A stretch of 64,000 nucleotides of DNA from Patescibacteria group bacterium (GCA_022562395.1 JADFPI010000001.1:1456-65455); one strand, 5' to 3'; counted from the first letter of the stretch, positions 3,825 to 61,467 are shown. Numbers and translations are program-made. The notes: a model not told the origin generated them from the letters alone.

Positions 3825-3968
3825 CAAATCTTTGCCAACAAAAAATCGGCCAAATCTTTCCCTTCCGGGCTGGACTTGGCACCGTTTTCCTTCGACTTTA
3901 CTCAGGACCGGTTGCCGGGTGGGTCATTGAGCCAGTACTCTCGCCACCACTCTTGATTTATTGCCTTA
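3799..3968 (-). promoter_or_regulatory. SAM-I (S-box) riboswitch: aptamer (about 3847-3962) plus terminator expression platform
   Basis: Minus-strand RNA matches the S-box consensus. It has AUCAAGAG, then GGUGGCGAGAG-UACUGGCUC (P2 with k-turn-like GA), AAUGACCCACCCGGCAACC, GGUGCCAAGUCC (P3), CCCGGAAGGG (P4 GGAA tetraloop) and GAAAGAUUUGG (P1 3' strand). It is preceded by a TGGTATAAT promoter and followed by a terminator and SD. No ORF lies inside. Confidence 0.85.
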
Positions 3969-8976: not shown

Positions 8977-11220
8977 ATGTCATTAAAGGATTTATTGCCT
9001 AATACAAAAGATAAAGAGAGTAGTGAGCACTTCTGGGCATTGGTTATCGAGCCCGGCTGGGTCCAAGCAGGGATATGGACAATAGAGAAAGATGAGGCAA
9101 GGGTTGTTTCTATGAGTCCGGCCACTGCTTGGGAGGCAGAAGAGGATTTGATAGGAGCTTCTGACACCGCCCTATCGGCCGCAGTTCAGAATTTTGACGA
9201 GGAATTGGGAGAGCCTGAAAAAACTGTTTTTGGAGTTGCTTCTTCTTGGGTTTCCGAGGGCCAGATAAAGAAAGAATACTTGGAAAAAATCAGACAGATA
9301 TGCACCAAGCTTTCTTTGACGCCTTCGGGGTTCGTGGTGCTCCCGGAAGCAATCGCCAATTTTTTGAAGGCTGAAGAGGGCGCGCCGCTAAGCGCAATAG
9401 TGGTTGGCCTTGGGCCGGAAAGTATCGAGGTAGCAGTTTTTAAGCTAGGAAATTTGATAGGAACGGTAGAAGTGGCCAGAAGTGTTTCAATCTCCGACGA
9501 CGTAGCCGAGGGACTTTCTCGCTTTACCCCGGGTGAAACTTTTCCTTCTAGGTTTTTAGTCTATAACGGAAAGAAGGTAGAGTTGGAGGACGCCCGGCAA
9601 GCCTTGCTTAAAACCGACTGGGAGATACTAAAGATTAAATTTTTGCACACTCCCAAAGTTGAACTCATCGACTCTGAAAAGAAAGTTTTAGCGGTTTGTC
9701 TTGCCGGAGCATCAGAACTTGCCGATGTCAACTTGATTGCCAGAGAAGGGGAAGACGAAGAAGCCGTAGAAAATTTGGTTGAGCCCAAAGAAGAAGTTTC
9801 TCCGGAAGAGCTGGGTTTTGTGATAGGCGAGGATATTGCTAAAACTAAGCCCACAAGCGAAGAGGTGAGTGTTCAAGCCCAAGTCCAAAAACAAGTTTCA
9901 AGGCCAGAAAAAGCGGACGTGCCCGAAGCCGGAGAAGTAAAAGAGGCAAAAAAAGAAAAAAAGAAATTTACTGACAGGTTCCTCTTCTTTAAAAAGATTA
10001 ACCCATTTGCTATTTTAAGGGGGGTAAAAAAAGAAATTACGGCCGTTTCTAGAAAAACAGGAAGCTTTGATATTTTAGGTGCAATGACTAAAAGAATGCT
10101 TATCTTTGGGGTAATATTTTTATTTTTGGTTTTGGGTGGCGCTTTTGCTGCTTGGTGGTATTTACCGAAAGCGACGGTTGCAATATTTATTGCTCCCAAA
10201 AAGCTCGAACAGACATTGACCATTTTTGTCGACTCAAGAAACGGCAACCTGGAAGGCAAAGAAAATGTTTTGTCGGGGGAGGCTCTTGAGACAATAGTTT
10301 CTGGAGAAAAAACCAGGCAGGCTTCCGGGACAAAAACGGTCGGCGAGCGGGCCAAAGGAGTTGTCAGTATCCAAAACGGCACAGTAAATGATATCAGTTT
10401 GCCAAGCGGGACTTTTCTTGTTGGGCCAAACGACCTAAGCTTCACCACAGACTCTCAAGTTTTAATCCCGGCGGCTACTTCTCCCAGTAGTCCCGGACAA
10501 GCAGAGACAAACGTGACGGCTTCGGACATTGGGGCGGAATATAACTTGGCAAAGGATGAAAAGTTTAGTGTCGGCAATTTCGCGAAGGCAGAAGTGGATG
10601 CGACCGCTGTTTCTGATTTTAGTGGAGGAACGAGTAAGCAAATAGCGGTTGTTTCGGAAGAAGACCAAACGCAGCTTGAGAATGAGCTAGTCGACGAGCT
10701 TACTGAAAAAGCCTCCAGAGAGCTTCCCGGAAAAATTGCCGAAGGAGAGCTCTTCATTGAAGAGGCATTAAAAAGCGAGATAACAAAGCGCTCCTTTAGC
10801 CATAAGGTTGGCGATGAGACATCTAATGTAAAACTGTCTCTCACAACGGCGGTACTGGGGCTATCGGTGGAACGGGCAGATTTATTACAACTTGCAAAAG
10901 AGATACTTGAGGAGAAAGCTCCAGCCGGCTATGTATTAAGAGAGGAACAGGTGGATGTAAGTTTTAAATTTGTGGGGGAAGAAGAAGGCGTTTATGAATT
11001 GGCGGCGGTGTTCACGGCCAATTTTCTTCCTCAAGTAGATACCGAGGACATAAAGAAAAATATCGTCGGAAAGTATCCAACTATAGCTAGTGATTATTTA
11101 ACGGAGATTGCCGGATTTACCCGCGCTGAAATTTCCATTGTGCCGGAGTTGCCGGGTAGACTCGGAACGTTGCCAAGGATTGGTAAAAATATTAAAATTG
11201 AAATTGCGCCTGAGAGGTAA
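8977..11220 (+). CDS. hypothetical membrane protein (747 aa; N-terminal cytoplasmic domain, one central TM helix, long Glu/Ser/Thr-rich exodomain)
   Basis: Long ORF with TM MLIFGVIFLFLVLGGAFAAWWYL around aa 370. No confident family. The N-terminus faintly resembles the actin/PilM fold (inference, weak). Confidence 0.6.
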   Translation: MSLKDLLPNTKDKESSEHFWALVIEPGWVQAGIWTIEKDEARVVSMSPATAWEAEEDLIGASDTALSAAVQNFDEELGEPEKTVFGVASSWVSEGQIKKEYLEKIRQICTKLSLTPSGFVVLPEAIANFLKAEEGAPLSAIVVGLGPESIEVAVFKLGNLIGTVEVARSVSISDDVAEGLSRFTPGETFPSRFLVYNGKKVELEDARQALLKTDWEILKIKFLHTPKVELIDSEKKVLAVCLAGASELADVNLIAREGEDEEAVENLVEPKEEVSPEELGFVIGEDIAKTKPTSEEVSVQAQVQKQVSRPEKADVPEAGEVKEAKKEKKKFTDRFLFFKKINPFAILRGVKKEITAVSRKTGSFDILGAMTKRMLIFGVIFLFLVLGGAFAAWWYLPKATVAIFIAPKKLEQTLTIFVDSRNGNLEGKENVLSGEALETIVSGEKTRQASGTKTVGERAKGVVSIQNGTVNDISLPSGTFLVGPNDLSFTTDSQVLIPAATSPSSPGQAETNVTASDIGAEYNLAKDEKFSVGNFAKAEVDATAVSDFSGGTSKQIAVVSEEDQTQLENELVDELTEKASRELPGKIAEGELFIEEALKSEITKRSFSHKVGDETSNVKLSLTTAVLGLSVERADLLQLAKEILEEKAPAGYVLREEQVDVSFKFVGEEEGVYELAAVFTANFLPQVDTEDIKKNIVGKYPTIASDYLTEIAGFTRAEISIVPELPGRLGTLPRIGKNIKIEIAPER

Positions 11221-11222
11221 AT

Positions 11223-11930
11223 ATGAAAAAGATGGTTCTTTGGAAAACTGCCAGTCTAGTTTCTTTGATTTTGGGATTTTTTTTATTGGCTTCGGTTGTT
11301 GTTCCCATAATTTCATACGAGAGCGCTTCTCGCGAAAAGTACCCCGATCTCTTGAGCCCTATTGTCGCAAATAAACCCGTCCCCAAGCTTGAGTCCTTTG
11401 ATTATACTCGGGCGAGTAATTGGTTTATTGATGATTTGCCCACGGAAGAATTTATTTCTTCCAATATTTCTTACTATACTTTTTCTATCCCGAAGTTGGG
11501 AATAGAAAATGCCAGGGTCAATATAGGCGGAGAGGATTTGTCAAAGAGCCTTATTCAATATCCCGGAACTGCCCGCCCGGGTAAAGAAGGAAATACTGTA
11601 GTTTTTGGACACTCAATCCTTCCGCAGTTTTTTAATCCAAAAAACTACATTGCAATATTTTCTACATTGCCTGATTTGGAAAAAGGAGACGCAATAAATA
11701 TCGAATATGATGGAATTTCTTATACCTATATAGTTCAGGATATGTTTGAGGTGCTACCGACGGACCTTTATGTATTGGACCAAGGACAGAATGATTCTTA
11801 CCTATCAGTGATAACTTGTGTTCCTCCAGGACACCCTCTTAAGCCAAGAAGATTAGTGGTTAGAGCTAGAATTGTTCCTTTTGAAGCTTCGAGGCTTTCT
11901 CAACAGATAAATGCGGATATTAGGAATTGA
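11223..11930 (+). CDS. sortase (transpeptidase)
   Basis: N-terminal signal-anchor, GNTVVFGHS (His), LSVITCVPPG (TLxTC-type Cys) and RLVVRAR (Arg). Confidence 0.8.
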   Translation: MKKMVLWKTASLVSLILGFFLLASVVVPIISYESASREKYPDLLSPIVANKPVPKLESFDYTRASNWFIDDLPTEEFISSNISYYTFSIPKLGIENARVNIGGEDLSKSLIQYPGTARPGKEGNTVVFGHSILPQFFNPKNYIAIFSTLPDLEKGDAINIEYDGISYTYIVQDMFEVLPTDLYVLDQGQNDSYLSVITCVPPGHPLKPRRLVVRARIVPFEASRLSQQINADIRN

Positions 11931-44788: not shown

Positions 44789-46498
44789 GTGAGAAAGATA
44801 GCTTTACTTTTCTTCTTGACTGGCGTTTTTGCTATTGGCGCCCTACGTGCCGAGGTGGTTTATGGCGCGGGAAAGGGCTCTTTGACCAACCTTGGAGGGA
44901 TGTGGGGTTGGACTGGGACGAACGAGGCGTTTGTACCGCAGCTAGTTATGTACGCTGACGTGCCGCGTTACTACAATAATCCTGGAAAGATTGATGCAGA
45001 TATTCAGACATTCATCAAAGGACACGGCTTCAGTGGTTTCCATGTAGGAGTCGCTTGCCGCTGGTTTGATTTGAATGAGAAGGATTGTCGCAATATTTCA
45101 GGAAGTAACCCCTTGCCAGACCAGAGGACAATTGATGCCTTAAAAATGCTTATTCAAAAAACTCATGCGGCTGGTGGTATGGTCCACATTTGGATGTGGG
45201 GGGACGCAGAACGCGGGCAAAATCCTTCAGTCAGAAGCGATTGGGGCGGTCTTATGGGGAGTGTTGACAAGCGCCTTCAGGACAAAATTGCCCAGGAATT
45301 GGGGTCGCTGGACGGTTGGAGCATGGGCTACGGGTTTGACCTTGATGAATGGGTAGGGGCAAGTAAGTTAAAGCAGTGGCGGGATTATCTCCAAGGGAGA
45401 CTTCCGAAGTTTCATTTTCTCGGCGGTCGACCGGCAGGACCTAATTCTGGCACAAACCACTCGGCTTTTGTTTCTTGGAATAAGCCGATGGACTACTCAA
45501 GTTACGAACATCACCGACCAACTTACAACGTCTATGTCGCCGCGCTTAGCGCGGTCTCCGGACAGCCGGTGATGTCCGAAGATCGCTTCCGCGTCCGTAG
45601 TGGCGGTCGTTCTAAAGACTACAATTTGGACGATACACGACGAGGCCTTTGGACTTCTACACTGGCGGGGGGAGTTGCAAACATCTGGGGGTACCTGAAA
45701 GACGGCGGCTCCCATGATGCCGGCTCGGCGCCTTATCCAAATAAAAACCAGATCAAAACTTATTCGCGCTTTTTTGAGGACAGGTTTAAAAAAGATATGA
45801 GTAGGTGTGGCAGTTTAACAAGTGGAGGTGCAAGGTGTTTGAAACGTTCAAATAACCGGGATTATGTTTTTTATAGAGAGAGTACTTCGTCCATCCAGAT
45901 GGATTTATCGGGAATGAGCGGTTCACAACCTGCCGTAGCCGTTGATACTAAAAAGACATATGGCGAGATTGACCTAGGTGCATTACAAGCAAAAAACCAG
46001 ACCTGGAATGCGCCGTATTCTTCCGACTGGGCCATTGCAGTCGGAAGTTTTGGTGGTGTCGTTCCTCCACCCTCGCTCACGCCTACTCCGACCGGGCAAG
46101 TTTCACCAACTCCTCCTTCTGATGGTTGGATTTTCTGTGTAAATGAACACGGATTCTGCTCATTCTCCGGAACCAAAGAGGTTAGGTACGGTGCTAACGG
46201 TTTCTATCGCTATCTAGTTTTGTCAAACGGTACCGACTGCACTAATGCGGTTTTTGGCGATCCAATTAAGGGAGTATTTAAGCAATGCCACTACAGGGAT
46301 GTTACTACCGTTTCGCCTTCTCCTATACCTAAACAAGGGGATATTGATAATGATGGAGATGTTGATATATTCGATTACAATATCCTTATTGAAAACTTTG
46401 GCAGCACTAATTGCGGTAATGTAGCCGACATTAACGGAGACTGTAAAGTAGATATTTTTGACTACAACATATTAGTTGAAAACTTCGGTGCGACTTAG
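44789..46498 (+). CDS. secreted protein with a C-terminal dockerin-like module (N-terminal putative glycoside-hydrolase-like domain + Cys-rich beta domain)
   Basis: Signal peptide MRKIALLFFLTGVFAIGALRA. The C-terminus is GDIDNDGDVDIFDYNILIENFG...CGNVADINGDCKVDIFDYNILVENFG, two EF-hand-like Ca loops. Confidence 0.75.
   Translation: MRKIALLFFLTGVFAIGALRAEVVYGAGKGSLTNLGGMWGWTGTNEAFVPQLVMYADVPRYYNNPGKIDADIQTFIKGHGFSGFHVGVACRWFDLNEKDCRNISGSNPLPDQRTIDALKMLIQKTHAAGGMVHIWMWGDAERGQNPSVRSDWGGLMGSVDKRLQDKIAQELGSLDGWSMGYGFDLDEWVGASKLKQWRDYLQGRLPKFHFLGGRPAGPNSGTNHSAFVSWNKPMDYSSYEHHRPTYNVYVAALSAVSGQPVMSEDRFRVRSGGRSKDYNLDDTRRGLWTSTLAGGVANIWGYLKDGGSHDAGSAPYPNKNQIKTYSRFFEDRFKKDMSRCGSLTSGGARCLKRSNNRDYVFYRESTSSIQMDLSGMSGSQPAVAVDTKKTYGEIDLGALQAKNQTWNAPYSSDWAIAVGSFGGVVPPPSLTPTPTGQVSPTPPSDGWIFCVNEHGFCSFSGTKEVRYGANGFYRYLVLSNGTDCTNAVFGDPIKGVFKQCHYRDVTTVSPSPIPKQGDIDNDGDVDIFDYNILIENFGSTNCGNVADINGDCKVDIFDYNILVENFGAT
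46334..46495 (+). repeat. dockerin-like module 1 (approximate bounds)
   Basis: DxDxDGDVDIFDYNxLxENFG x2 with a CGN...GxC pair. Confidence 0.75.
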
Positions 46499-46535
46499 AG
46501 ATGAAATCTTTTAAATTTGCTACCATGTAGGTGGC

Positions 46536-48023
46536 ATGAAGAGGTATTTGTTTTTCTTTCCCCTTCCATTTTTTTTGCTTGCATTTGCTTCTTATGTTCA
46601 GGCGCAGACGATTTGCAAGGTTGGCAATGCGACGGGGAATGATACTGCCAAAATTCAGGCTGCAATTAACTCCTGTGCTGGGGGTGGTGAGGTAAAGTTA
46701 AGTTCGGGCAAAACTTATACTGCGGGGACAATTGTGCTTAAAAGCGGCGTTACGCTGAATTTAAACGGCGCGATACTTGAAACCAGTGCAAAGGAAAGTG
46801 ATTTTCAAAGCATTAGTAACGATACGACCCGGATTACATTTGTGGGAGCTGATAAGGGTACCGCCAATGTGGTCATCGTGGGGCCAGGGATGATAAAAAA
46901 ATCATCCCAATCGGATTTCGAGATTGCCTTTTTGCGTTTTGTGGGAAATACCAATCTCACGTTGAAAAATTTTGAAGTGAACTCTTTATCCGCGCCTCCA
47001 ACCGCGGGGGGATTTCACATTACGCTTGATGATAGCGACGGCGTATTGCTCGATGAGATTACTGTACGAGGCAGGCGAGGAGGGGGACAGGTGTGGGGAA
47101 ATGATGGCATTGATGTTCGCTCTCGCAATGTCACAATTAGGAATTGTGATGTGAATACGCACGATGACGGGATTGTAATTGCAACCCCAGAGAAGTACCC
47201 GAAAGGTGTAAGTAACGTTACGGTGGAAAATTGCCGTGTCTCAAGCGATTCTTCCGCTCTTAAGTTTGGGACCGGCACCCACCATGATATTAACAATGTC
47301 ACATTTGACAAGATAACGATTTACGATGGAGCGGGGATCCGTTTTTCCGTATATGATGGTGCAGAATTGAGTAATGTAATATTTTCGAATATTACATACG
47401 AATCGAATATGAATTATCTTTTTGCGTGTGGCGGGGGCGCGAGTGGCCTCGGAATCATGAAAGATTGCGCAGGCCCTGTTGATCGTGACGGCGATGGTAT
47501 TAAAGAGACAGCCGGAGGGTATATTCGTGACATTGTGTTTGAAGATTTTGACATTTTTGATATAGGTAGCAGGAATGCTCACGGTGAGGCATCGCTTAAT
47601 ACTATGGACCGCGTGACGTTTAAAAATATCCGTTTTCATTCCGGATCCGGTTCTCCGCCTCTCGCTCGCTTTCGAAATATCTGTGGGTTGTCCATTTCGA
47701 ATATTACTTACCCCCACCCTACGATTGCCAATCCGCAAAATGATCTGAATATAGAAGTAAGCGTTACGAACGTCCGCTATGACGGCGGTGCCCCCGTCTG
47801 CGGTGGTGCTCTGCCCACTTCGACTTCTACGCCCACAAAAGAGCCGTCTCCGATGCCAACCGGTGGAGATTTAGACTCCGACGGTGATGTAGATATTTTT
47901 GATTACAACGCTCTAGTTGAGAATTTTGGAGCTAGTGTCTGCGGGAATATCGCCGACATTGACGGGAACTGTAAAGTAGATATTTTTGACTACAATATTC
48001 TGGTAGAGAATTTCGGGCGATAA
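46536..48023 (+). CDS. secreted right-handed beta-helix glycoside hydrolase/lyase (GH28-like motifs) with a C-terminal dockerin-like module
   Basis: Signal peptide; GNDGIDVRSRNVTIRNCDVNTHDDGIVIA resembles the GH28 NTDG/DD motifs; ST-rich linker; dockerin. Confidence 0.7.
   Translation: MKRYLFFFPLPFFLLAFASYVQAQTICKVGNATGNDTAKIQAAINSCAGGGEVKLSSGKTYTAGTIVLKSGVTLNLNGAILETSAKESDFQSISNDTTRITFVGADKGTANVVIVGPGMIKKSSQSDFEIAFLRFVGNTNLTLKNFEVNSLSAPPTAGGFHITLDDSDGVLLDEITVRGRRGGGQVWGNDGIDVRSRNVTIRNCDVNTHDDGIVIATPEKYPKGVSNVTVENCRVSSDSSALKFGTGTHHDINNVTFDKITIYDGAGIRFSVYDGAELSNVIFSNITYESNMNYLFACGGGASGLGIMKDCAGPVDRDGDGIKETAGGYIRDIVFEDFDIFDIGSRNAHGEASLNTMDRVTFKNIRFHSGSGSPPLARFRNICGLSISNITYPHPTIANPQNDLNIEVSVTNVRYDGGAPVCGGALPTSTSTPTKEPSPMPTGGDLDSDGDVDIFDYNALVENFGASVCGNIADIDGNCKVDIFDYNILVENFGR
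47862..48020 (+). repeat. dockerin-like module 2 (approx.)
   Basis: GGDLDSDGDVDIFDYNALVENFGASVCGNIADIDGNCKVDIFDYNILVENFG. Confidence 0.75.
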
Positions 48024-48053
48024 TTAATTACTCTCACATTTTCTTCTGATAGA

Positions 48054-49508
48054 ATGGGTTCAGTGCCTATTAACCTCAAACCCTTCTTTATTATTGTTAT
48101 TGGTGGCCTGCTATTTATATTCATTTCTTTATTTAAAACTTATAGCTTTACTTATGCAGCTACCCCGGAGCTTAAATGGAGCGAAGGTTTTGAAGGAAGC
48201 AAGACCGGGGGTACTCATAGTAGCGGTTGTGGAAATCAAGAATATATTAAAGGGAACCCCGGACTGGCTCATTCTGGTGGGGGAGTTCACATGTCCGAAG
48301 CTACTCAAGATCCGTGTAGTTCCGCGATTCGCTATTACCCAACTTGGGATGGCAACATCCCGCTTCCAGTTCTGGTGATGTTTTGGATGAAAACAGATGT
48401 TCCGGGTTACCCGGGAATATCAAAAACCCAAGCTTATAAAATCATTGGTGGGGATAGATTCAGCCCTTTGACGGTTAAAGAGCGGACCGATAAGGGGAAA
48501 AGTTATCAGTGCGTCGCCAGTGTTTGCAATGGTGGCTTTCGTGCAGGTAAATCTTGCTCAAAAAATGGTGAATGTCCCAATAATGCCCTTCTAATGACTA
48601 CTCACATTCGCAGTGATGGGACCTTTGATATTGGCCACGTTCTAATGACCTTCCGCTCCACCAGTATCAAAGCTCCAATTAATGAGTGGTTTTTGCACAG
48701 TGCCTATATTGAAAATGTTGGTAGTGGTTCAAACTTAAAAACTTGGGTGACTATTTATATGAATGAAAAGGAAGTCTCCCGTGGTTACACTTACGAAACA
48801 GAAAATAAACCTTGGACCGGAGCAGCCAAGCATTGGCACATGGGTTGGTATGGTGACCGAAATGGCAATAGTGGACCTTTTAAAATCTACAACGACGATA
48901 TGAAATTTTACGATGTATCGAGCCAGAATGAGGCTGAATCGATTATTGCCAATGAGATTGGTGGAAGCCCGCCGCCGACCTCGCCACCCGGTACGCCAAC
49001 GCCGACGAAAAAACCGACATCTACTCCAGGTGTACCAACGCCTACTCCAACAACTCCGTCCGACCCAAGTGCTAAGTTTAAGATTGGTGATCGAGTCGAA
49101 ACAACGGAAACGGCCAATGTCAGAGAAAGTCCAGGAGAAGGATTAATTGGTACTCAACCTCCTGGTGTTTCCGGAACAGTCGTTGGTGGTCCAGGATTGG
49201 GTGTAGGAGGTGATCATTGGTGGTGGGTGATTGACTACGACACAGGGACTGACGGCTGGAGCCGAGAAGACCTGCTCAAAAAAATAGCGTCAGCTCCATC
49301 TCCTACACTAACTTCAACGCGGACGCCTACACCTTCCCCGAGTATTCCCGGAGATTTGGATAACGACAACGATGTAGATATTTTCGACTACAATACACTT
49401 TTAGAGAATTTTGGAAATACAAACTGCGGAAATGTAGCCGACATCGACGGAAATTGCAAAGTAGATATCTTTGACTACAATATCCTTTTGGAGAACTTTG
49501 GTTTATGA
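48054..49508 (+). CDS. secreted jelly-roll (ConA-like) domain protein + SH3b-like domain + C-terminal dockerin-like module
   Basis: Signal-anchor; PT-rich linkers; SH3b-like KFKIGDRVETTETANVRESPGEGLIGTQPPGVSGTVVGGP...WWWVIDYDTGTDGWSREDLL; dockerin. Confidence 0.7.
   Translation: MGSVPINLKPFFIIVIGGLLFIFISLFKTYSFTYAATPELKWSEGFEGSKTGGTHSSGCGNQEYIKGNPGLAHSGGGVHMSEATQDPCSSAIRYYPTWDGNIPLPVLVMFWMKTDVPGYPGISKTQAYKIIGGDRFSPLTVKERTDKGKSYQCVASVCNGGFRAGKSCSKNGECPNNALLMTTHIRSDGTFDIGHVLMTFRSTSIKAPINEWFLHSAYIENVGSGSNLKTWVTIYMNEKEVSRGYTYETENKPWTGAAKHWHMGWYGDRNGNSGPFKIYNDDMKFYDVSSQNEAESIIANEIGGSPPPTSPPGTPTPTKKPTSTPGVPTPTPTTPSDPSAKFKIGDRVETTETANVRESPGEGLIGTQPPGVSGTVVGGPGLGVGGDHWWWVIDYDTGTDGWSREDLLKKIASAPSPTLTSTRTPTPSPSIPGDLDNDNDVDIFDYNTLLENFGNTNCGNVADIDGNCKVDIFDYNILLENFGL
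49350..49505 (+). repeat. dockerin-like module 3 (approx.)
   Basis: PGDLDNDNDVDIFDYNTLLENFGNTNCGNVADIDGNCKVDIFDYNILLENFG. Confidence 0.75.
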
Positions 49509-50887
49509 CAAAAGTACGTTTACTATTGGCAGTTTTGGCTTTTCTAACCAGTGCTTTTATTAGTCTCTCTGCTCCGGCAGGATCGTTAGCCGCAAAACTT
49601 ATTTTCAATAGCGGTTTTGAAGCGGATTCTCAGATTACAGGGGGATACGCGGATATATCAGGCACAGATCGTTCTGTTTCGTCTCCCAATAATTGGGATA
49701 ATGCCTGGGATTTTCATTTCAATTACAACGGGGGTAACGGTAGCACAAGGAAGGCTGAGATCGTAGACGATCCAGCAGGAGGGAATAACAAAGTACTTCG
49801 TTTATGGTTGAGGGATGCATATGGTGGCTCGGTACGCTCAACTTCGCGAATCCGACGGCTAGGCAGGACGGAGTGGTTCAGCCGAAGGAGAGTCTATGTA
49901 GACCCGGATTTCTTGTTACTCTCGAATTATACAGGATCCTCAAGGGTCATGTTTGAGGAGATCAAAGTTACACAAACCAAGACGAGTCCAAGCTTTCGCA
50001 TTACCGCGGCCTGGGGTGATATAGCCCGAGGGGTGTCTTGGGATATTGAGGCCGAAGACTTGAGAGCTTCTGGTCCAGCATTTTGGACTTGTACGTCAAG
50101 AACTAGCGTTCCAATCGGCGAGTGGTTTACGCTTGAGACATATTACAGGGCGGGAGACGCGAAAAACGGCCGCTATGTCCTTACCTTCCAAAGGGACGGC
50201 GGGTCTAAACAGACGATTTGTGACGTAACCAACTGGACGTATCATCCCGACATGGGGCCATCCTCTCCATGGACCTACAATCCCATGAAACTCTATATGT
50301 CTCGAGGAGATGACGTGGATTGGATTCGAAACAACGGCGGGGTAGCGCAACTCTATTTTGACGACTGGGAGGTGTGGTCTACAATGCCGGATGGAGAAAT
50401 CCCACCTTTAACTTCAACTTTAAAACCGACCCCTACTATTAGTAAGATCCCCGGAGGAAAATTTAAAGTAGGCGATCGGGTGGAAGTGACTGTTACAGCC
50501 AATGTGAAGTTGACCGCAGGACAAGGATTAAGAGGTACTCAGCCTCCGGGTGCAAGGGGAACCGTCCTTGGCGGACCCGAGATTGGGATAGGAGGTCAGA
50601 ATTGGTGGTGGGAGATTGATTATGATTCTTGGCCTGATGGTTGGAGCCGAGAAGATTTACTTGAAAAGGTTGGTGGTCCAACCTCAACGCCGACACCAAC
50701 TCCTGCAAAAGTTCCAGTTCCTGGCGATATAGATGGCGATGGTGATGTTGATATTTTTGACTACAACATTCTTGTCGCAGAGTTTGGAAGTACAGATTGC
50801 GGCAGAGTGGCAGATATTAATGGCGATTGTAAAGTTGATATTTTTGACTACAATTCTCTGGTTGAAAATTTTGGGAGAACAGTATGA
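49505..50887 (+). CDS. secreted polysaccharide-lyase/glycanase-like jelly-roll protein (PL7-like YYRAG motif) + SH3b-like domain + dockerin-like module
   Basis: Signal peptide. RTEWFSRRRVY and YYRAGDAKNGRYVLTFQ resemble the PL7 RxELR / YFKAG motifs (weak). SH3b-like KFKVGDRVEVTVTANVKLTAGQGLRG...; dockerin. Confidence 0.65.
   Translation: MTKVRLLLAVLAFLTSAFISLSAPAGSLAAKLIFNSGFEADSQITGGYADISGTDRSVSSPNNWDNAWDFHFNYNGGNGSTRKAEIVDDPAGGNNKVLRLWLRDAYGGSVRSTSRIRRLGRTEWFSRRRVYVDPDFLLLSNYTGSSRVMFEEIKVTQTKTSPSFRITAAWGDIARGVSWDIEAEDLRASGPAFWTCTSRTSVPIGEWFTLETYYRAGDAKNGRYVLTFQRDGGSKQTICDVTNWTYHPDMGPSSPWTYNPMKLYMSRGDDVDWIRNNGGVAQLYFDDWEVWSTMPDGEIPPLTSTLKPTPTISKIPGGKFKVGDRVEVTVTANVKLTAGQGLRGTQPPGARGTVLGGPEIGIGGQNWWWEIDYDSWPDGWSREDLLEKVGGPTSTPTPTPAKVPVPGDIDGDGDVDIFDYNILVAEFGSTDCGRVADINGDCKVDIFDYNSLVENFGRTV
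50723..50884 (+). repeat. dockerin-like module 4 (approx.)
   Basis: PGDIDGDGDVDIFDYNILVAEFGSTDCGRVADINGDCKVDIFDYNSLVENFG. Confidence 0.75.
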
Positions 50888-52357
50888 GGAAACTTTTTTT
50901 CGCCTCCTTCTTAACTATATTTATCCTTGCACTTCACTTAAATAAAGTAGACGCACAGACTGTATGTAATGTCGGCAGTGCGACTGGCAATGATACCCAA
51001 AAAATTCAAAATGCTATTGATTCCTGTGCTGGGGGTGGCGAGGCAAAGTTAAGTTCGGGCGAGACTTATACTGCGGGGACAATTGTGCTTAAAAGTGGAG
51101 TAACGCTCAATTTAAATAGCTCAACCATTCAGGCCTCTGATAACGAGAATGACTTTATTTCTTGTAAAGAGGGAAGCACTCGAAATTTTTTCATATGCAC
51201 GAGGGCCAAAACGGACAGTGTGGTCATTACTGGACCGGGGGCTTTAACTAAGACTCCGGGGAGCAAGGTTGACCATTCAATGGTGGAATTTTGGAACTCG
51301 AGCAACTTAACCGTAAGGAACTTAACTATTGATACTACCATGGCAGACAAAACGGTTAGTGGTTTTCACCTGAACACCGCTGCCAGCAATAATATTTTGT
51401 TTGAGAGCATTACTGTGCGCGGTGGTCGGGCAGGAGGACAGGTATGGGGCAACGATGGTATCCACCTCCAGGGTTCACAGAACGTTACTGTCAGAAATTG
51501 CGATATTAGTACCCACGATGACGGAATTCCTATCCCCGCTTCATCAGGTGAAGGGGCGCGGAACGTGTTAGTTGAGGATTGTGTTGTATCAAGCGACTCT
51601 AGCGCACTTAAGTTCGGTACGGGCTCCAGTGATAAATGGGACGGTATAACATTCAGGAACATAACGATAAAGAACACTAACGTTGCAATTGGCTTTGCTG
51701 TTTATGATGGAGGTGAGGTAAGCAATGTAATCTACGACAATATAACTGTTGAGTCAGATGTAAAAGTATTGTTTGCCTGCGGCGGCGGCGCTGCAGGCTT
51801 AGGTGGCATGAAAGACTGTGCCGGGCCGGTGGATAGGGACGGAGACGGAGTTAAAGAGACTCCCGGGGGATATATTCATGATGTAACTTTTCAAAACTTC
51901 GAAATCTTCGGCGGCGGCAGTTCGACATCGCACGGTGAAGCTTCGCTAAATACAATGGATAGAGTGACTTTGAAAAATATTAATTTCCACGAAGGTTCTG
52001 GAACGGCCCCGCTGGCATGGTTCAGGGATATATGTGGGCTTTCAATTTCTGGTTTCACCTCGCACTTAACAGGCGACCCGACTAAGGATATGCAAATTGA
52101 TTCGAAGTGTTACCAATTTAAGGCTGGATGGCGGTACGCCAAACTGTGGGGGTGCCGGTTCTACTCCCACTCCTACTTCCAAACCTCCTCTTACAGGAGA
52201 TTTAGACGGCGATAACGATGTTGATATTTTTGACTACAATATCCTTGTTACAAATTTCGGACAGGCTGGGGAAAACCTAGCAGACATTGATGGTAACGGC
52301 GATGTAGATGTCTTTGACTACAACATACTTCTTGAGAATTTTGGTAAGATACCGTAG
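50884..52357 (+). pseudogene. second GH28-like beta-helix + dockerin gene, split by a +1 frameshift near 52104-52110 (track ORFs 50884..52215 and 52097..52357)
   Basis: Paralog of 46536..48023. Frame 1 ends DMQIDSKCYQ.... Frame 2 continues SVTNLRLDGGTPNCGG...dockerin, matching the paralog's SVTNVRYDGGAPVCGG. This is a real pseudogene or a homopolymer error. Confidence 0.6.
52199..52354 (+). repeat. dockerin-like module 5 (lacks the Cys pair: QAGENLADIDGNGDVDVFDYNILLENFG)
   Basis: GDLDGDNDVDIFDYNILVTNFG...ADIDGNGDVDVFDYNILLENFG. Confidence 0.7.
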
Positions 52358-52464
52358 AACGGTTTGTCCATCAGGAATCATCCTCTTGCCACAAAATACT
52401 TTTCCATCATTCGTTTATCTTGAGAAAGAGGTGTTTAAGAGTGTAGAGTCTAAGAGAGGGCAAA

Positions 52465-54480
52465 ATGAAATTTAGCCGTAATTTACTTCCTTTTTTTCTT
52501 GCCGTCTTTTTCCTATCGAGCCTCTTTCCTTTTAGAGCACTAGCCCAGACCGGAGGAGTAGGAGCTGATGGCAAAACCTTTGAAGAGCGCAAAAAAGACT
52601 GGCTTAACTTTGTTCCACAGCCAAGCTCTGAGATGGACATGACGACGCGTCGACGCTACCTTTTTAGTTGGCTAGAGAAGGGTATATATAACAATGTTGT
52701 TTCCGAGTCAATTCAAGACTTTGTCGGTGGTTATTGGCTGGGTGGTATCAGGGCCCAGGGTGGATATGCGGTTATGATATTAAAAAAATATGGCCAGAAG
52801 GGTTCAGGGCTAATTAGCTCAAATGACGAGAGCAAAATCAAGAACAGGTATAGGCGCTCGATAGAAAACAGCGGTTTTTTCGGACATCTCAATCCAAACA
52901 AGCAGGTATATGCAATGGTTGGGACATATCTTTATACACATTACTACGAGAATAGCTTGCAGTTTCCAGTTTACGGTTACCCCACGTCCCAAGACCCAAG
53001 CAATTTACCCTCCTACTACCAAGATCAGTGGCCGACCTTTTCCTATGGCGGGCGTACCTACAAGTTCGGAAGCGGACCATACAATGCCCAGCAACTTTCA
53101 AGGGACTGGTTGCTGTGGGCTTTTGATAAATGGTATGTTGGCAAATCTCCTTCTAAGGGGCCTCGTGAGTTTGATTCCATCGACTATGCTCGAGCCTTTC
53201 CTGGCGCGACTGCTTTGCTTTGGAGTCTTGCACCCAACTCTGACCAAGCAATTAAGACTCGTGCCAAGATGGCGACGGACCTGCTTCTTCTTGACTCGGT
53301 TCTCGATTTCTCGGCCAATTCATGGGGTGGAACTATGAGCCGCGCAGATTACTACTGGATGGGTCGCTCTCCAATTTTTCCAATGCACATCTATTGGGGA
53401 ATGGGAGAAGACACCGACAGGTTTGACGTGCGTGTTCTCTACCAGGTTGGGTATGTCCCTCCTGATGTAATAATTGACGCTGGGGTTCTAACCGACGAGG
53501 CTGATAACTATTGGTACTGGCACACAGAACATCAGGCTAATGGGTTACTTAATCAGTGGGAGTTTGGCAAATGGAACTTTGTTACCAAAAATTACAATAT
53601 TGGCTCGAATGTAGGATGGGGAAAGAGGGGTTGGCAGGTTAATGTAAAAGGTCCTGGAAGAAAAGCGTTTATCAGATTATGGGTTAATCAGGATGACACA
53701 GAGCCTGTGTCAACCAGCGAAGGCAGCCATATGGGCAACAAAGGGAGGCAGTTTCGTAATGCAATTTTTGCAGATGTTGGCTCTCAACCCTTTTTGTGGG
53801 AAAAAAGAGTTAAGACTGATTGGGACAAAGATGAAATTGATAGCGGGATACAATGCTCAAATGTCGCCTCAAGCACCTGGCGCTGTAGCGGTAGCGGATG
53901 GATTTTTAGAAAGAAAGATAAATCCATGGTGGCCATTTCTCTTGGCGCAAAAACCGCCTCAGCCGAGGTGGCAACAGAAGGTGTAGAGTATTCTAATTGG
54001 AATGCTTTCAAAGGCGCAGTAAGGGCAAACGCTTCTTTAACAACAGGCTCTTACACGACATCTCAAGGTTCAACTATTGGTAAAGAGGACTATTGTGGCC
54101 TAAATGCACCCGGAGATTGCCAGTTTCCCTTTGAGCGAATGAACACACAAGACTTTCGAGGAAATAAGATTGTTGAATGGCTCGCTGGTGACAAAATGAG
54201 AGTTTCTCTTCGTGGTAAAACTTGCACTTACGACTTTAGTAAATGGACTTATTCAGGAAGCTGTGGGGAGAAAGTCCCTGGCCCAACAGATACTCCAACT
54301 CCTACGCCATCCAAAGTAGAAGGCGACCTTGATGGTGACGGTGATGTTGATATTTTTGATTACAACTTTTTGATTGAGAACTTTGGCGATGCTAAGTGTG
54401 GTAATGAAGCAGATATAGACGGAAATTGCAAGGTAGACATATTTGATTACAATATTCTGGTAGAGAATTTCGGTAAATGA
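52465..54480 (+). CDS. secreted protein of unknown function (about 600-aa N-terminal domain) with a C-terminal dockerin-like module
   Basis: Signal peptide, PT linker and dockerin EGDLDGDGDVDIFDYNFLIENFGDAKCGNEADIDGNCKVDIFDYNILVENFG. Confidence 0.7.
   Translation: MKFSRNLLPFFLAVFFLSSLFPFRALAQTGGVGADGKTFEERKKDWLNFVPQPSSEMDMTTRRRYLFSWLEKGIYNNVVSESIQDFVGGYWLGGIRAQGGYAVMILKKYGQKGSGLISSNDESKIKNRYRRSIENSGFFGHLNPNKQVYAMVGTYLYTHYYENSLQFPVYGYPTSQDPSNLPSYYQDQWPTFSYGGRTYKFGSGPYNAQQLSRDWLLWAFDKWYVGKSPSKGPREFDSIDYARAFPGATALLWSLAPNSDQAIKTRAKMATDLLLLDSVLDFSANSWGGTMSRADYYWMGRSPIFPMHIYWGMGEDTDRFDVRVLYQVGYVPPDVIIDAGVLTDEADNYWYWHTEHQANGLLNQWEFGKWNFVTKNYNIGSNVGWGKRGWQVNVKGPGRKAFIRLWVNQDDTEPVSTSEGSHMGNKGRQFRNAIFADVGSQPFLWEKRVKTDWDKDEIDSGIQCSNVASSTWRCSGSGWIFRKKDKSMVAISLGAKTASAEVATEGVEYSNWNAFKGAVRANASLTTGSYTTSQGSTIGKEDYCGLNAPGDCQFPFERMNTQDFRGNKIVEWLAGDKMRVSLRGKTCTYDFSKWTYSGSCGEKVPGPTDTPTPTPSKVEGDLDGDGDVDIFDYNFLIENFGDAKCGNEADIDGNCKVDIFDYNILVENFGK
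54322..54477 (+). repeat. dockerin-like module 6 (approx.)
   Basis: See the CDS. Confidence 0.75.
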
Positions 54481-54776: not shown

Positions 54777-55991
54777 ATGCCAGACACAAGTTCAAATTCG
54801 GGGGAGGGTTTATCAAGATTGCTTTCTAGTAAAAAAGACTTATCCCCATTGGTTTTGGTTTTTATTCTTCTTCTCGGTATAGTAGTCGGAGTTTTTTTGA
54901 TTCAGTTCAGGCAAGAGCTTCGAAGGCGCGCAGCGGTAGCCGGAGTGGATTTCTCGCTTGTTCCCAGTAAAACCACCGTTTCTCCAAATGAGAAGTTTAC
55001 GGTAGATATTGTGATGAATACTAACGAATTTAGCGTCTCGGCTACAGAAATCCACGTTGCCTTTGACGCAAATTATCTTGAGGCTGAAAGTATTCAAGAA
55101 AGCGGCTTTTTGCCGGTTGTTTTGCCGCCTGGGCCACAAGTTGGCAGTGGTACGGCCTCAATTATTTTAGGAAGCTTGCCTTCTGACCCAAAGAAGGGAA
55201 CTGGTACGGTAGCCACGATTAATTTCAAGGCGCTTAAAGCATCAGGTGGGCCAACCGAGATTCGCTTTGATTCAGGCACTCAAACTGCCGCACTTGGAAA
55301 TGCCGGGGATGTAACCAGAAATCTCAGCCCAACCAGCGTAACTGTTCAAGGTGTGGTTGCTCCAACTCCGACGAAAACGCCAACGCCGACAAAGAAACCA
55401 ACAGCAACTCCTACGTCCAAACCTGCGCCGACTTCTACTCCCACTCCCAAAGCAACGGCTACTCCAACTCCTTTGCCAACTCCGACTCCTCTACCGAGCC
55501 CAACACCGGGTAAAGCAAACCTTGAGTTTAAAGTGAAATTCCAGGGAATTTCCTCTCAAAAATCGGCTAGGCTAGTAAGAGTGATGTTAATGCAAGGGGG
55601 AAGTGAAGTGTATAGGTTTGACGACGTTAGTGTAACCGCTGACCAATCTGGAGTTTACCTGGGTTCAGTTGGAAATATCACGCCAGGTACATACGACGTT
55701 TATATTAAAGGCCCGATTCATCTGCAAAAGAGATTTACCAGTATTTCCATCTCATCGGGTTCAAATAGCCAAGATTGGTCTGGAGTGACTCTTAAAGCGG
55801 GCGACTTTGACGCCAATAACGTTTTGAACATTATCGACATTGCGGGCATGTTGGCGGAGTACACTGCACTTTCTGTCCCTGCCAATCAGTCAAATCAAAA
55901 GTTCGACATCGACGCAAATGGTGTTATAAATATTATTGACGTAGCTTTGGTTTTGACAAACTATACAGCGTTGGAGGTACCAGGAGACTAA
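54777..55991 (+). CDS. membrane-anchored adaptor scaffoldin-like protein: N-terminal TM, cohesin-like domain, PT linker, beta-sandwich domain, C-terminal dockerin of a second sequence type
   Basis: TM LVLVFILLLGIVVGVFLI. Cohesin-like FSLVPSKTTVSPNEKFTVDIVMNTNEFSVSATEIHVAFDANYLE...GTVATINFKALKASGGPTEIRFD. (TPTP)n linker. Dockerin DFDANNVLNIIDIAGML...DIDANGVINIIDVALVLTNY. Confidence 0.7.
   Translation: MPDTSSNSGEGLSRLLSSKKDLSPLVLVFILLLGIVVGVFLIQFRQELRRRAAVAGVDFSLVPSKTTVSPNEKFTVDIVMNTNEFSVSATEIHVAFDANYLEAESIQESGFLPVVLPPGPQVGSGTASIILGSLPSDPKKGTGTVATINFKALKASGGPTEIRFDSGTQTAALGNAGDVTRNLSPTSVTVQGVVAPTPTKTPTPTKKPTATPTSKPAPTSTPTPKATATPTPLPTPTPLPSPTPGKANLEFKVKFQGISSQKSARLVRVMLMQGGSEVYRFDDVSVTADQSGVYLGSVGNITPGTYDVYIKGPIHLQKRFTSISISSGSNSQDWSGVTLKAGDFDANNVLNIIDIAGMLAEYTALSVPANQSNQKFDIDANGVINIIDVALVLTNYTALEVPGD
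54939..55347 (+). repeat. cohesin-like domain 1 (approx.)
   Basis: See the CDS. Confidence 0.6.
55800..55988 (+). repeat. type-2 dockerin-like module (DxDANxVxNIIDxAxxL x2)
   Basis: Its sequence differs from the six enzyme dockerins. Confidence 0.65.
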
Positions 55992-56597
55992 ATGAAAAAC
56001 CTGTCCCAAAAAAATAGGTTGCTGCTTGCTTTCGTAATTGGAGGTGTAGGGATATTAATTGGAGTTTCCTTGGGCAATTATTTTGTAAAGGGAAGAGGCC
56101 CGAGTCCAACGCCCGAGGTTACAACAGCGCCTTCAAAAAGTAGGGCAACCCTTTCTTTCTATCCCGAGGAAACAGAGGTTGACGTGGGTGATGAATTTAG
56201 CGTTGAGATTAGGCTAAATGCTGAAGGCTTAGTTCTTTCCGGATTAGCGGTAAGGATGGTTTACGAATACGAGGGCGATTTGCCGCTTGAGCCCCAGGAT
56301 GTAAAGATGAGAGTCAATCCAGCGCTAGCTGGAATGGATTGGGTGTTTCCAGTAAATACGATAGAGGTTGATGAGAGGAACAAAAGAGTCGTCGCAGAGC
56401 TGGCCGCAGTCAATTTAAACCCCGGAGGATATCCGGCCGAAGGCTCAGTCACTTTTGCGACTATTGATTTTAATGCTGAAAGCTCAAGCAGTAACGACTT
56501 GGCCTTTACTTTTGACGCTGAAAACACGAAATTACTTACCAAAGATGGACGAGAGGTGGAGATAGAACTAGTCGAGAGGCTGTACAGCGTAGATTAA
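55992..56597 (+). CDS. membrane-anchored cohesin-like domain protein (201 aa)
   Basis: N-terminal TM LLLAFVIGGVGILIGVSL. Cohesin-like LSFYPEETEVDVGDEFSVEIRLNAEGLVLSGLAVRMVYEYEGDL...GSVTFATIDFNAESS. Its start abuts the stop of the previous gene. Confidence 0.65.
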   Translation: MKNLSQKNRLLLAFVIGGVGILIGVSLGNYFVKGRGPSPTPEVTTAPSKSRATLSFYPEETEVDVGDEFSVEIRLNAEGLVLSGLAVRMVYEYEGDLPLEPQDVKMRVNPALAGMDWVFPVNTIEVDERNKRVVAELAAVNLNPGGYPAEGSVTFATIDFNAESSSSNDLAFTFDAENTKLLTKDGREVEIELVERLYSVD

Positions 56598-56646: not shown

Positions 56647-57558
56647 ATGGCAGTAAAACCAACCGTTAAAACAATTCTTGCAATTTTGGTAATTTTAGTG
56701 CTGGTAATAAGCATTCCAGTTGCCGTGTTTTTGATAAGACAGCGGCAGGAGATTAGGGAGAAAGCTGCAGTTCCCACTGGACAGGCAACCGTATCCCTAT
56801 CACCGACGAGTGCAACTTACGATGTTGGGCAGTCGTTTAGTGTTAGCGTTTCTTTTAATACGGCAAATATAGCGATATCAGCAGTCGCGGTCAGGCTAAC
56901 TTATCCCTACTCTGGAACAACACCGGAACTTACAGCCTCCGATATTCAAATAAATCCGTCACTATTGGCGACAGGAAGCTGGAGCTGTCCGGTTAAAACG
57001 ATTACCCCTTCAAGCGGAACGGTTCAAATAGATATAGCCTGTGTAAACACCGATATTAATGGATATACCTCGGCAACCGATACACAACTGGCGTCATTTA
57101 GCGTGGTTGCCAACCAAGTTCCAGCAACCAACCCAACCACTTTGAGGTTCGACCCGAATTTGAGTGTTATTACCCAAAAATCAGACGGGCAAGACGTCCT
57201 TTTGATTCCCACAAGCACTGGTTCTTATACAATTTCCGGAGGTGCAGGTCCAACTCCAACCCCAACTCCAACTCCAACGCCCACCCCGACAAGTGGTATA
57301 GGCGGTGGGGCAACCGCAACTCCAACCCCCACTCTCACAGAAGACGAGCAAGATTTGACACCAACCCCCACTCCTAGCCCAACCCCTACGGGAGGCACTG
57401 GCGGTGGGGCAACCGCAACACCAACCCCCACTCCGACAGAAATTGAGGAGCTTCTAGACTCGGGGGTATCAACGCCTACTTTACTGGCCGCATTTGTAGG
57501 ATTTTTGCTGCTTCTTGTTAGCGCTGGAACCTTCTCAGTGGTATTTTTGAGAAAGTAG
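56647..57558 (+). CDS. cohesin-like domain protein with an N-terminal TM, a (PTPT)n linker and a C-terminal hydrophobic anchor
   Basis: TM ILAILVILVLVISIPVAVFLI. Cohesin-like VSLSPTSATYDVGQSFSVSVSFNTANIAISAVAVRLTYPY...TQLASFSVVANQV. GPTPTPTPTPTPTPTSG linkers. C-terminal LLAAFVGFLLLLVSAGTFSVVFLRK. Confidence 0.65.
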   Translation: MAVKPTVKTILAILVILVLVISIPVAVFLIRQRQEIREKAAVPTGQATVSLSPTSATYDVGQSFSVSVSFNTANIAISAVAVRLTYPYSGTTPELTASDIQINPSLLATGSWSCPVKTITPSSGTVQIDIACVNTDINGYTSATDTQLASFSVVANQVPATNPTTLRFDPNLSVITQKSDGQDVLLIPTSTGSYTISGGAGPTPTPTPTPTPTPTSGIGGGATATPTPTLTEDEQDLTPTPTPSPTPTGGTGGGATATPTPTPTEIEELLDSGVSTPTLLAAFVGFLLLLVSAGTFSVVFLRK

Positions 57559-61396: not shown

Positions 61397-61467
61397 CGGG
61401 GAGTAGTTTAGTGGTAGAATGTGCGCATGGGGTGCGTGCGGCCCGAGTTCGATTCTCGGCTCCCCGA
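61397..61467 (+). tRNA. tRNA-Pro (anticodon GGG)
   Basis: Manual fold gives acceptor CGGGGAG/CTCCCCG, anticodon loop AT-GGG-GT with U33 and G37, T-arm CCGAG-TTCGATT-CTCGG, discriminator A and no encoded CCA. The D-stem is weak (GU pairs). Confidence 0.65.

Follow-up and report, generated by a model that had tools for sequence, protein, structure and literature searches.

What purpose is served by a pair of cysteines (Cys) that recurs in the docking modules of neighbouring genes in a candidate-phylum bacterium, and how did these modules come to look so much alike? The question is raised by a tandem array of six consecutive + strand genes, here named g1 to g6, which occupy positions 44789-54480 of a 64,000-nucleotide stretch of DNA from Patescibacteria group bacterium (GCA_022562395.1 JADFPI010000001.1:1456-65455); this whole stretch is referred to as the window, and all coordinates without another source are positions in it. 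Each of the six proteins has a hydrophobic, signal-peptide-like N terminus (by inspection), a Pro/Thr-rich linker, and a C-terminal module of 50-51 amino acids. An earlier reading of the DNA by itself (the sequence-only reading) had described the modules as dockerins with an unusual Cys pair, and its module coordinates were right, the six C-terminal modules being found where it had placed them. It had also regarded all six proteins as enzymes, which holds for g2 and g5, the only two with a recognisable catalytic domain (a GH28/pectate-lyase fold, by Pfam), and is an assumption for g1, g3, g4 and g6, whose bodies gave no Pfam or PDB sequence match, save a weak SH3_3 match in g3. The g2 protein is identical to P0035, the NCBI entry ‘hypothetical protein IID21_00300 [Patescibacteria group bacterium]’. 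The six genes and their modules are as follows.

44789-46498, + strand: g1; dockerin at 46340-46492, Cys codons at 46412-46414 and 46442-46444.
46536-48023, + strand: g2, with a GH28/pectate-lyase-fold body; dockerin at 47868-48020, Cys codons at 47940-47942 and 47970-47972.
48054-49508, + strand: g3; dockerin at 49353-49505, Cys codons at 49425-49427 and 49455-49457.
49505-50887, + strand: g4; dockerin at 50726-50878, Cys codons at 50798-50800 and 50828-50830.
50884-52215, continuing to 52357 in another frame, + strand: g5; dockerin without Cys at 52199-52348.
52465-54480, + strand: g6; dockerin at 54325-54477, Cys codons at 54397-54399 and 54427-54429.

All six modules are built of two tandem segments of ~22 residues, each with a 12-residue loop (Asp or Asn at positions 1, 3, 5, 9 and 12) followed by a helix, and have the general form D-x-D-x-D-x-D-V-D-I-F-D-Y-N-x-L-x-x-N-F-G, linker, D-I-D/N-G-D/N-x-x-V-D-I-F-D-Y-N-x-L-x-E-N-F-G; the g1 module translates as DIDNDGDVDIFDYNILIENFGSTNCGNVADINGDCKVDIFDYNILVENFGA. 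When the whole window was scanned in six frames for the Ca-loop pattern, twelve loops were found in the six modules and two in g7, a gene just downstream of the array, and no others. Against Pfam Dockerin_1 (PF00404, cut-off 22.9 bits) the g1 module scored above the cut-off at 23.6 bits, followed by g4 (22.3), g6 (18.5) and g3 (11.5), and there was no match to this family for g2 or g5. A profile of the modules matched the solved dockerin 2y3n_B over the full length (E=3.4e-5). The AlphaFold2 model of the g1 module, made from an 11-sequence alignment, reached a mean predicted local distance difference test score (pLDDT) of 97.6, with helices at residues 12-21 and 41-49 and no linker helix; compared by Foldseek, it superimposed on 2y3n_B with a template modelling (TM) score of 0.89 and a root-mean-square deviation of 0.8 Å over 53 columns, and its best matches were all dockerins. 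Pattern, profile and predicted fold all place the six modules in the superfamily of bacterial dockerins, as compact members that form an outlying branch; they belong to a ‘DIFDYN’ family that is typical of Microgenomates/Patescibacteria.

The closest solved example, 2y3n_B, is the Cel48 dockerin of Bacteroides cellulosolvens, one of the bacterial cellulosomal dockerins (PF00404), and the comparison brings out what is common and what is distinctive. In common are the two tandem F-hand segments with near-symmetric duplicated helices, the C-terminal position after a Pro/Thr linker on secreted proteins, and the presence of cohesin genes in the same locus. On the other hand, the window modules are shorter (51 amino acids), their linker has 8 residues in the Cys-pair type as against 12 in 2y3n_B, their helix motif is DIFDYNxLxxNFG, and their host is a Patescibacteria bacterium, and not a cellulosome producer of the Clostridia. 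The two segments of each module are 71-76% identical to one another, and the symmetry-equivalent positions 19/48 and 15/44 of helices 1 and 3 co-vary strongly among 182 dockerin domains; both features fit, at the level of sequence, a dockerin with a dual binding mode, and such co-variation would be expected if the two-fold symmetry were maintained by selection or by intragenic exchange. With respect to the Cys pair, we are dealing with a structural variant within the known dockerin superfamily and not with a new kind of system.

The pair itself was located precisely. In the modules of g1, g2, g3, g4 and g6, one Cys belongs to the linker and precedes the first Asp of loop 2 by 5 residues, and the other stands at position 6 of loop 2; the spacing is C-x9-C in all five, i.e., exactly 10 residues, as the sequence-only reading had approximately stated. 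Its consensus, CGN(V/I)ADI(D/N)G(N/D)CKVDIFDYN, is exact for g1-g3 and departs from the actual residues in g4 (CGRVA) and g6 (CGNEA). Its further proposal, a disulfide across the two Ca-binding segments, does not agree with these positions: the linker and loop 2, which together make up the second segment, hold both Cys, and any bridge between them would be local to that segment. The residues of 2y3n_B that align with the two Cys are Val (at -5) and Gly (at position 6). To our knowledge, natural bacterial dockerins have been described as Cys-free, Ca-stabilised modules, and the pair proved to be as unusual as had been supposed: among 213 dockerin-type loops in the 73 loci fetched, position 6 is Gly in 175 and Cys in only 4, so that Cys at this position is rare among dockerin-type loops generally. 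The same C-x9-C spacing recurs in the bodies of two of the proteins, at residues 90/100 and 340/350 of g1 and 464/474 of g6, and all Cys of the g1 and g6 proteins come as closely spaced pairs.

Conservation of the pair in related clusters had been put forward as a check on the idea, and homologues were collected on a large scale. When 1.84 billion representative proteins were searched exhaustively with a hidden Markov model (HMM), 10,870 matches were obtained at E<=0.001, of which 912 were at E<=1e-10, while a word-indexed search with a 55-amino-acid module gave 6 short matches; the best 150 of the former and two of the latter made up a set of 152 proteins. A module with both Cys was present, at least once, in 106 of these 152 best-matching representative proteins, the 106 coming from other metagenomes, and the variant therefore exists in at least about a hundred protein clusters. 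It is also conserved in a syntenic contig from another metagenome (L075), where g1, g3 and g4 have orthologues that lie together with one further gene, and all four have the Cys pair; the pair thus stands up to the check. The product of the further gene, encoded at L075 640-2734 in the position of g2, is a different protein, called as two overlapping open reading frames (ORFs) of 549 and 168 amino acids, which may be another case of frameshift; its dockerin has the Cys pair.

The homologues also allowed the two Cys to be followed as a unit. In a strict parse of the DIFDYN-type modules, 76 had both Cys, 24 had neither, and 0 had one only; the linker Cys was invariably at -5 in the both-Cys modules, and the linker measured 8-9 residues in modules with the pair and 6-11 in those without it. 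When all 183 resolved domains of the best matches were counted, 108 had both, 64 had neither, and 11 had a single Cys. Among 182 unique domains, Cys27-Cys37 ranked at the top of 1378 column pairs by mutual information with average product correction (APC), the helix positions described above following just below. Since both Cys have been kept in the window although synonymous sites are saturated (as detailed below), and since they co-occur strictly in the homologues, the pair is more than a product of chance; it is real and under selection. Dockerin-like repeats with Cys in or beside the Ca loop, at shifted positions, were also seen in Planctomycetes- or Deltaproteobacteria-labelled sequences with an NWG-type helix (L028, L060, P0083), for example with C at -3 and C at position 6, or with Cys at position 7, and dockerin loops may have acquired Cys braces on more than one occasion.

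What can be said of the taxonomic range of the Cys-pair carriers comes from three genome loci and from the name of the g2 protein at NCBI. In species-representative genomes, the type was found in L001 (a Microgenomates metagenome-assembled genome, MAG), L002 (a Syntrophobacteraceae MAG) and L003, which is labelled Gammaproteobacteria and has a gene content that looks to be of the candidate-phyla type. More broadly, eight contigs (L003, L004, L007, L008, L009, L012, L015 and L039) are labelled ‘uncultured Gammaproteobacteria’ and yet have DIFDYN dockerins as in Microgenomates-type MAGs, and their labels look doubtful. In L001 (1276-3882) and L003 (1296-3095) the Cys-pair dockerin is internal, preceded by a cohesin-like domain at the N terminus and followed by a Cys-rich domain at the C terminus, the latter having a HExxH zincin-like motif in L003; this architecture is unlike that of the window, where the modules are C-terminal on cargo proteins.

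A conserved pair need not have a structural role, and it could be argued that the two Cys are a marker of one dockerin clade, passed on by descent alone. A single origin of the pair, which is conceivable, would suit this explanation, as would the Cys-less sister subtype (described below), which appears functional and is itself conserved. However, both Cys have stayed invariant in the face of saturated synonymous sites and in host proteins that are less than 50% identical, there is not one single-Cys intermediate among the 100 DIFDYN-type modules, and it is hard to see a near-universal Gly at loop position 6 (175/213) being replaced to no functional end. A mere lineage marker is thus regarded by us as quite unlikely.

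The reading that we favour, as the most likely one, is that the two Cys form a disulfide within the module, which probably clamps the second Ca loop. Such a bond would close an 11-residue ring, C-G-N-x-A-D-x-D-G-x-C, that encircles ligands 1, 3 and 5 for Ca in loop 2, and would fix the very short linker to this loop; in the extracellular space, the clamp may thereby hold the second F-hand in a pre-organised form or make it more stable. The disulfide is favoured by the strict co-occurrence of the two Cys, the predicted export of the carriers, and their even Cys counts. As to the latter, the five carriers in the window have 10, 10, 8, 4 and 8 Cys, and every Cys-containing protein of the cluster is even in Cys, including g9 (2), one of three cohesin-like proteins encoded downstream; elsewhere, 62 of 72 full-length Cys-pair carriers have even counts and 10 have odd ones (binomial p=2.7e-10). 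Parity of this kind was reportedly used by Dutton et al. in PNAS in 2008 as a signature to recognise oxidative folding of exported proteins.

Several points weigh against the disulfide-clamped dockerin as we read it. Most of the module scores in Pfam are below the gathering threshold of Dockerin_1. The 11 single-Cys domains, some of them with a shifted second Cys, are exceptions to the co-occurrence, all of them in distant multi-repeat proteins. The co-occurrence counts are not phylogenetically independent, and the Cys pair may have had a single origin, so that the count of 0 singletons would reflect conservation more than repeated co-gain; moreover, Cys-bearing modules supplied most of the sequences for the search profile, and the top matches are enriched in them as a result. 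No gene of the DsbA, DsbB or VKOR type was found among the window ORFs scanned, namely those outside ~13.7-40 kb; by their size, their order and the translations at 39.7-43 kb, the ORFs in that interval look like an RNA polymerase and ribosomal protein block. Lastly, anoxic groundwater is home to many Patescibacteria, and disulfides outside the cell could be reduced there.

The same facts invite the suggestion that the two Cys act as thiols, either as a switch that responds to redox state by making loop 2 stiffer or looser, by which assembly of the complex would be turned on and off at oxic/anoxic transitions, or as ligands of a soft metal. The conservation and co-variation of the pair speak for this as they do for a disulfide, the scanned part of the window had no oxidative-folding gene, and the host lineage is often found at redox boundaries. 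Against it, there is no conserved His or further Cys nearby, and a metal site does not usually consist of two thiols only; position 6 of an EF- or F-hand loop does not serve as a ligand and is directed away from the ion; and the even Cys parity of the carriers points to stable pairing. Free thiols are rather unlikely on balance. A bolder version combines the two ideas in a redox-responsive clamp, to which we give a small chance: in the oxidised state, loop 2 and the linker would be locked and docking would be tight, and perhaps less Ca-dependent, whereas in the reduced state the second F-hand would loosen and the enzymes would be released or switched to the other binding orientation. If true, this would let an episymbiotic Patescibacteria cell assemble or shed its surface enzyme complex at oxic/anoxic boundaries, and the Cys-less g5 would be a channel insensitive to redox state, perhaps meant for another of the three cohesins.

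It might also be asked if the Cys could pair between molecules, such that docking to a cohesin or another partner becomes covalent. Engineered cohesin-dockerin pairs with intermolecular disulfides do exist (cited in PMC12484212) and provide the precedent, and g9, with its two Cys, provides a conceivable partner. Nevertheless, g7 and g8, the other two cohesin proteins, are without any Cys, the two Cys of g9 make up an even pair of their own, and the strict co-occurrence within the module together with even parity fits an intramolecular pair; covalent docking is therefore considered very improbable. The 2025 review just mentioned (PMC12484212) speaks of disulfides only as engineered features. 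In the literature searched, the coverage of which was incomplete, a native Cys pair was not described for any bacterial dockerin, although an earlier description may exist.

Analogies to an intramodule clamp do exist in other proteins. In thrombospondin type 3 repeats and in the EF-hand pair of SPARC/BM-40, an Asp-rich Ca loop of a secreted protein is held by a nearby disulfide. The concept is common to these and to the window modules, whereas the spacing of the Cys and the surrounding fold are not; the proteins scanned gave no match to Pfam TSP_3 or SPARC, no sequence homology was detected, and the likeness is one of analogy only. Fungal (Neocallimastigomycota) dockerins are likewise small, Cys-containing docking modules on secreted carbohydrate-active enzymes; they differ in fold, a disulfide-rich beta structure in which F-hand Ca loops are absent, and share no homology with the modules described here. 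Dockerin-cohesin pairs are standard building blocks of cellulosomes and of synthetic enzyme scaffolds. A widespread, naturally clamped sub-family of 51 amino acids would show how an F-hand can be stabilised without Gly at position 6, and Cys-pair modules could provide docking tags that are more robust or redox-controllable.

The single module of the array that has no Cys deserves separate treatment. The g5 module (DLDGDNDVDIFDYNILVTNFGQAGENLADIDGNGDVDVFDYNILLENFGK) has neither Cys, a linker that is one residue shorter, and Gly at loop-2 position 6, and its gene is interrupted by a frameshift, located as follows.

52105-52106, + strand: frameshift site in g5, AA in the window where L076 has a single A; corrected gene 50884-52357.

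L076 is an independent assembly that is 99.63% identical to the window over 3775 nucleotides by blastn (13 mismatches, one gap) and in which the g6 module is identical; at the site in question the window reads GATTCGAAGTGTT and L076 reads GATTCGAGTGTT. Deletion of one A restores a 490-amino-acid protein, 4 substitutions away from P0153, which is the intact 490-residue allele in L076. The extra A is due either to an error of assembly or to a strain-specific frameshift of very recent date.

As regards the module, P0153 has exactly the Cys-less module of g5, and the nearest other homologues of g5 (P0154, P0155 and P0156, 54-62% identical) also have Cys-less modules with short linkers, the pair being present in more distant relatives of the same family, namely g2 and P0164. 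Because an intact allele has the same module and the nearest homologues are Cys-less as well, the module of g5 is a separate subtype, i.e., a stable Cys-less sister subtype, and the sequence-only reading, which held that the sixth copy had lost both Cys, has to be revised. Decay of a pseudogene was considered as a cause of the Cys-less module and is ruled out by the intact P0153/L076 allele. Cys-less DIFDYN dockerins are in fact abundant, being the common form in Woesebacteria, Daviesbacteria and Gottesmanbacteria loci. Those of the MAG loci L004-L014, like that of g5, have the same duplicated GD(I/L)DxxxxVDIFDYNxLxxNFG as the Cys-pair type; they are also C-terminal and in multi-gene arrays with g7-like cohesins nearby, and they differ in having Gly (rarely Lys) at loop-2 position 6 and no Cys in the linker.

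We now turn to how the modules came to resemble one another. The sequence-only reading had called them near-identical, far more similar than the catalytic domains, and had offered module shuffling or gene conversion as the cause. Near-identity does not describe them: pairwise identities are 64-84% at the amino acid level and 67-75% at the nucleotide level, and only 36-57% at third positions. The contrast between module and body stands in a weak form for two pairs of genes, g2/g5 (68% DNA identity in the module, 60% in the body) and g3/g4 (70% and 44%), and lapses for the rest, since the other bodies of g1-g6 are mutually unrelated. The module is better conserved than the body between orthologues too: g3 and P0026 are 79% identical in the body and 96% in the module, the latter value coming from an in-register comparison with the same module on L075, the contig of P0026.

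If the modules were kept alike by recent shuffling or gene conversion among the six genes, i.e., by concerted evolution, one could point to the g2/g5 and g3/g4 comparisons and to the location of all six in one tandem array. The synonymous sites tell otherwise. By the Nei-Gojobori method, the five Cys-pair modules have proportions of synonymous differences (pS) of 0.64-0.99, which is saturated and too high to correct in 9 of the 10 pairs, against nonsynonymous distances (dN) of 0.11-0.21. Where two modules have the same residue, they also have the same codon at 206 of 402 sites, where codon usage alone would give 179. Each module resembles its orthologue on L075 more than any paralogue in either genome: DNA identity between L075 and the window is 92% for g3 (96% as protein), 95% for g4 and 81% for g1, and 68-79% for paralogous modules, within or across the two. 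Residues specific to a single gene have been retained between orthologues, such as AEFG, CGR and NSL of g4, and the nearest neighbours of each module at the protein level lie outside the window. Gene conversion is consequently rejected, as synonymous identity is not raised and paralogues are less alike than orthologues; of all the explanations weighed here, we deem concerted evolution extremely improbable.

The saturated synonymous sites and the greater similarity of orthologues than of paralogues lead instead to old common ancestry with strong purifying selection, most simply for recognition of a common cohesin. Protein-level likeness of short modules can thus coexist with fully saturated synonymous sites, and for this reason similarity alone is no evidence of concerted evolution. 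One more resemblance within the array concerns g3 and g4, which have in common a segment of ~70 amino acids just before the dockerin linker, KFK(I/V)GDRVE...WWW(V/E)IDYD...GWSREDLL, with a weak match to bacterial SH3 in g3 alone (E=0.02).

The likely partners of the dockerins are encoded by three genes immediately downstream of g6.

54777-55991, + strand: g7; N-terminal membrane or signal segment, cohesin, Pro/Thr linker and divergent dockerin at 55803-55988; no Cys.
55992-56597, + strand: g8; membrane-anchored cohesin-like protein; no Cys.
56647-57558, + strand: g9; cohesin-like, with a membrane segment at the N terminus, a Pro/Thr linker, and a hydrophobic C-terminal tail that ends in RK; its two Cys are residues 114 and 132.

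The g7 protein matches Pfam Cohesin at 30.1 bits (cut-off 24.1) and Dockerin_1 at 17.6 bits. By BLASTP, the three are related to one another (g7/g8, E=0.001; g7/g9, E=2e-7; g8/g9, E=2e-17), and profile A2, made of g7-g9 and relatives from other loci, matches solved cohesins (6kg8_A, E=2e-7). Cohesins similar to that of g7 adjoin genes of DIFDYN dockerins in L009, L011, L012 and L014, and are found inside the Cys-pair dockerin proteins of L001 and L003. It is likely, from this pairing in sequence, that g7 is a docking partner of the DIFDYN dockerins, which would tether secreted proteins with Pro/Thr linkers to the membrane-anchored cohesins g7-g9; the second, divergent dockerin of g7 suggests that assembly may be hierarchical.

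The locus is a small cohesin-dockerin system in which cohesin proteins and dockerin types are equal in number, with three of each; the dockerins are the Cys-pair type in five copies, the Cys-less DIFDYN type in one, and the g7 type in one. Together with the six dockerin cargo proteins, the cluster documents a complete cohesin-dockerin gene set in Patescibacteria/Microgenomates, candidate phyla for which no description of such systems was found in the literature searched (coverage incomplete). The C terminus of g9 (57440-57558), a hydrophobic stretch and then RK, resembles a cell-wall sorting signal and has no clear LPXTG motif. A sortase gene is present at 11223-11930 (Pfam Sortase, E=1.6e-22), directly after an ORF of 747 amino acids at 8977-11220 for which a weak Baseplate_J match was the only one. 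Also in the window, and unrelated to the modules, are an S-adenosylmethionine (SAM) riboswitch of the S-box class on the - strand at 3849-3962 (48.9 bits) and a tRNA gene on the + strand at 61397-61467.

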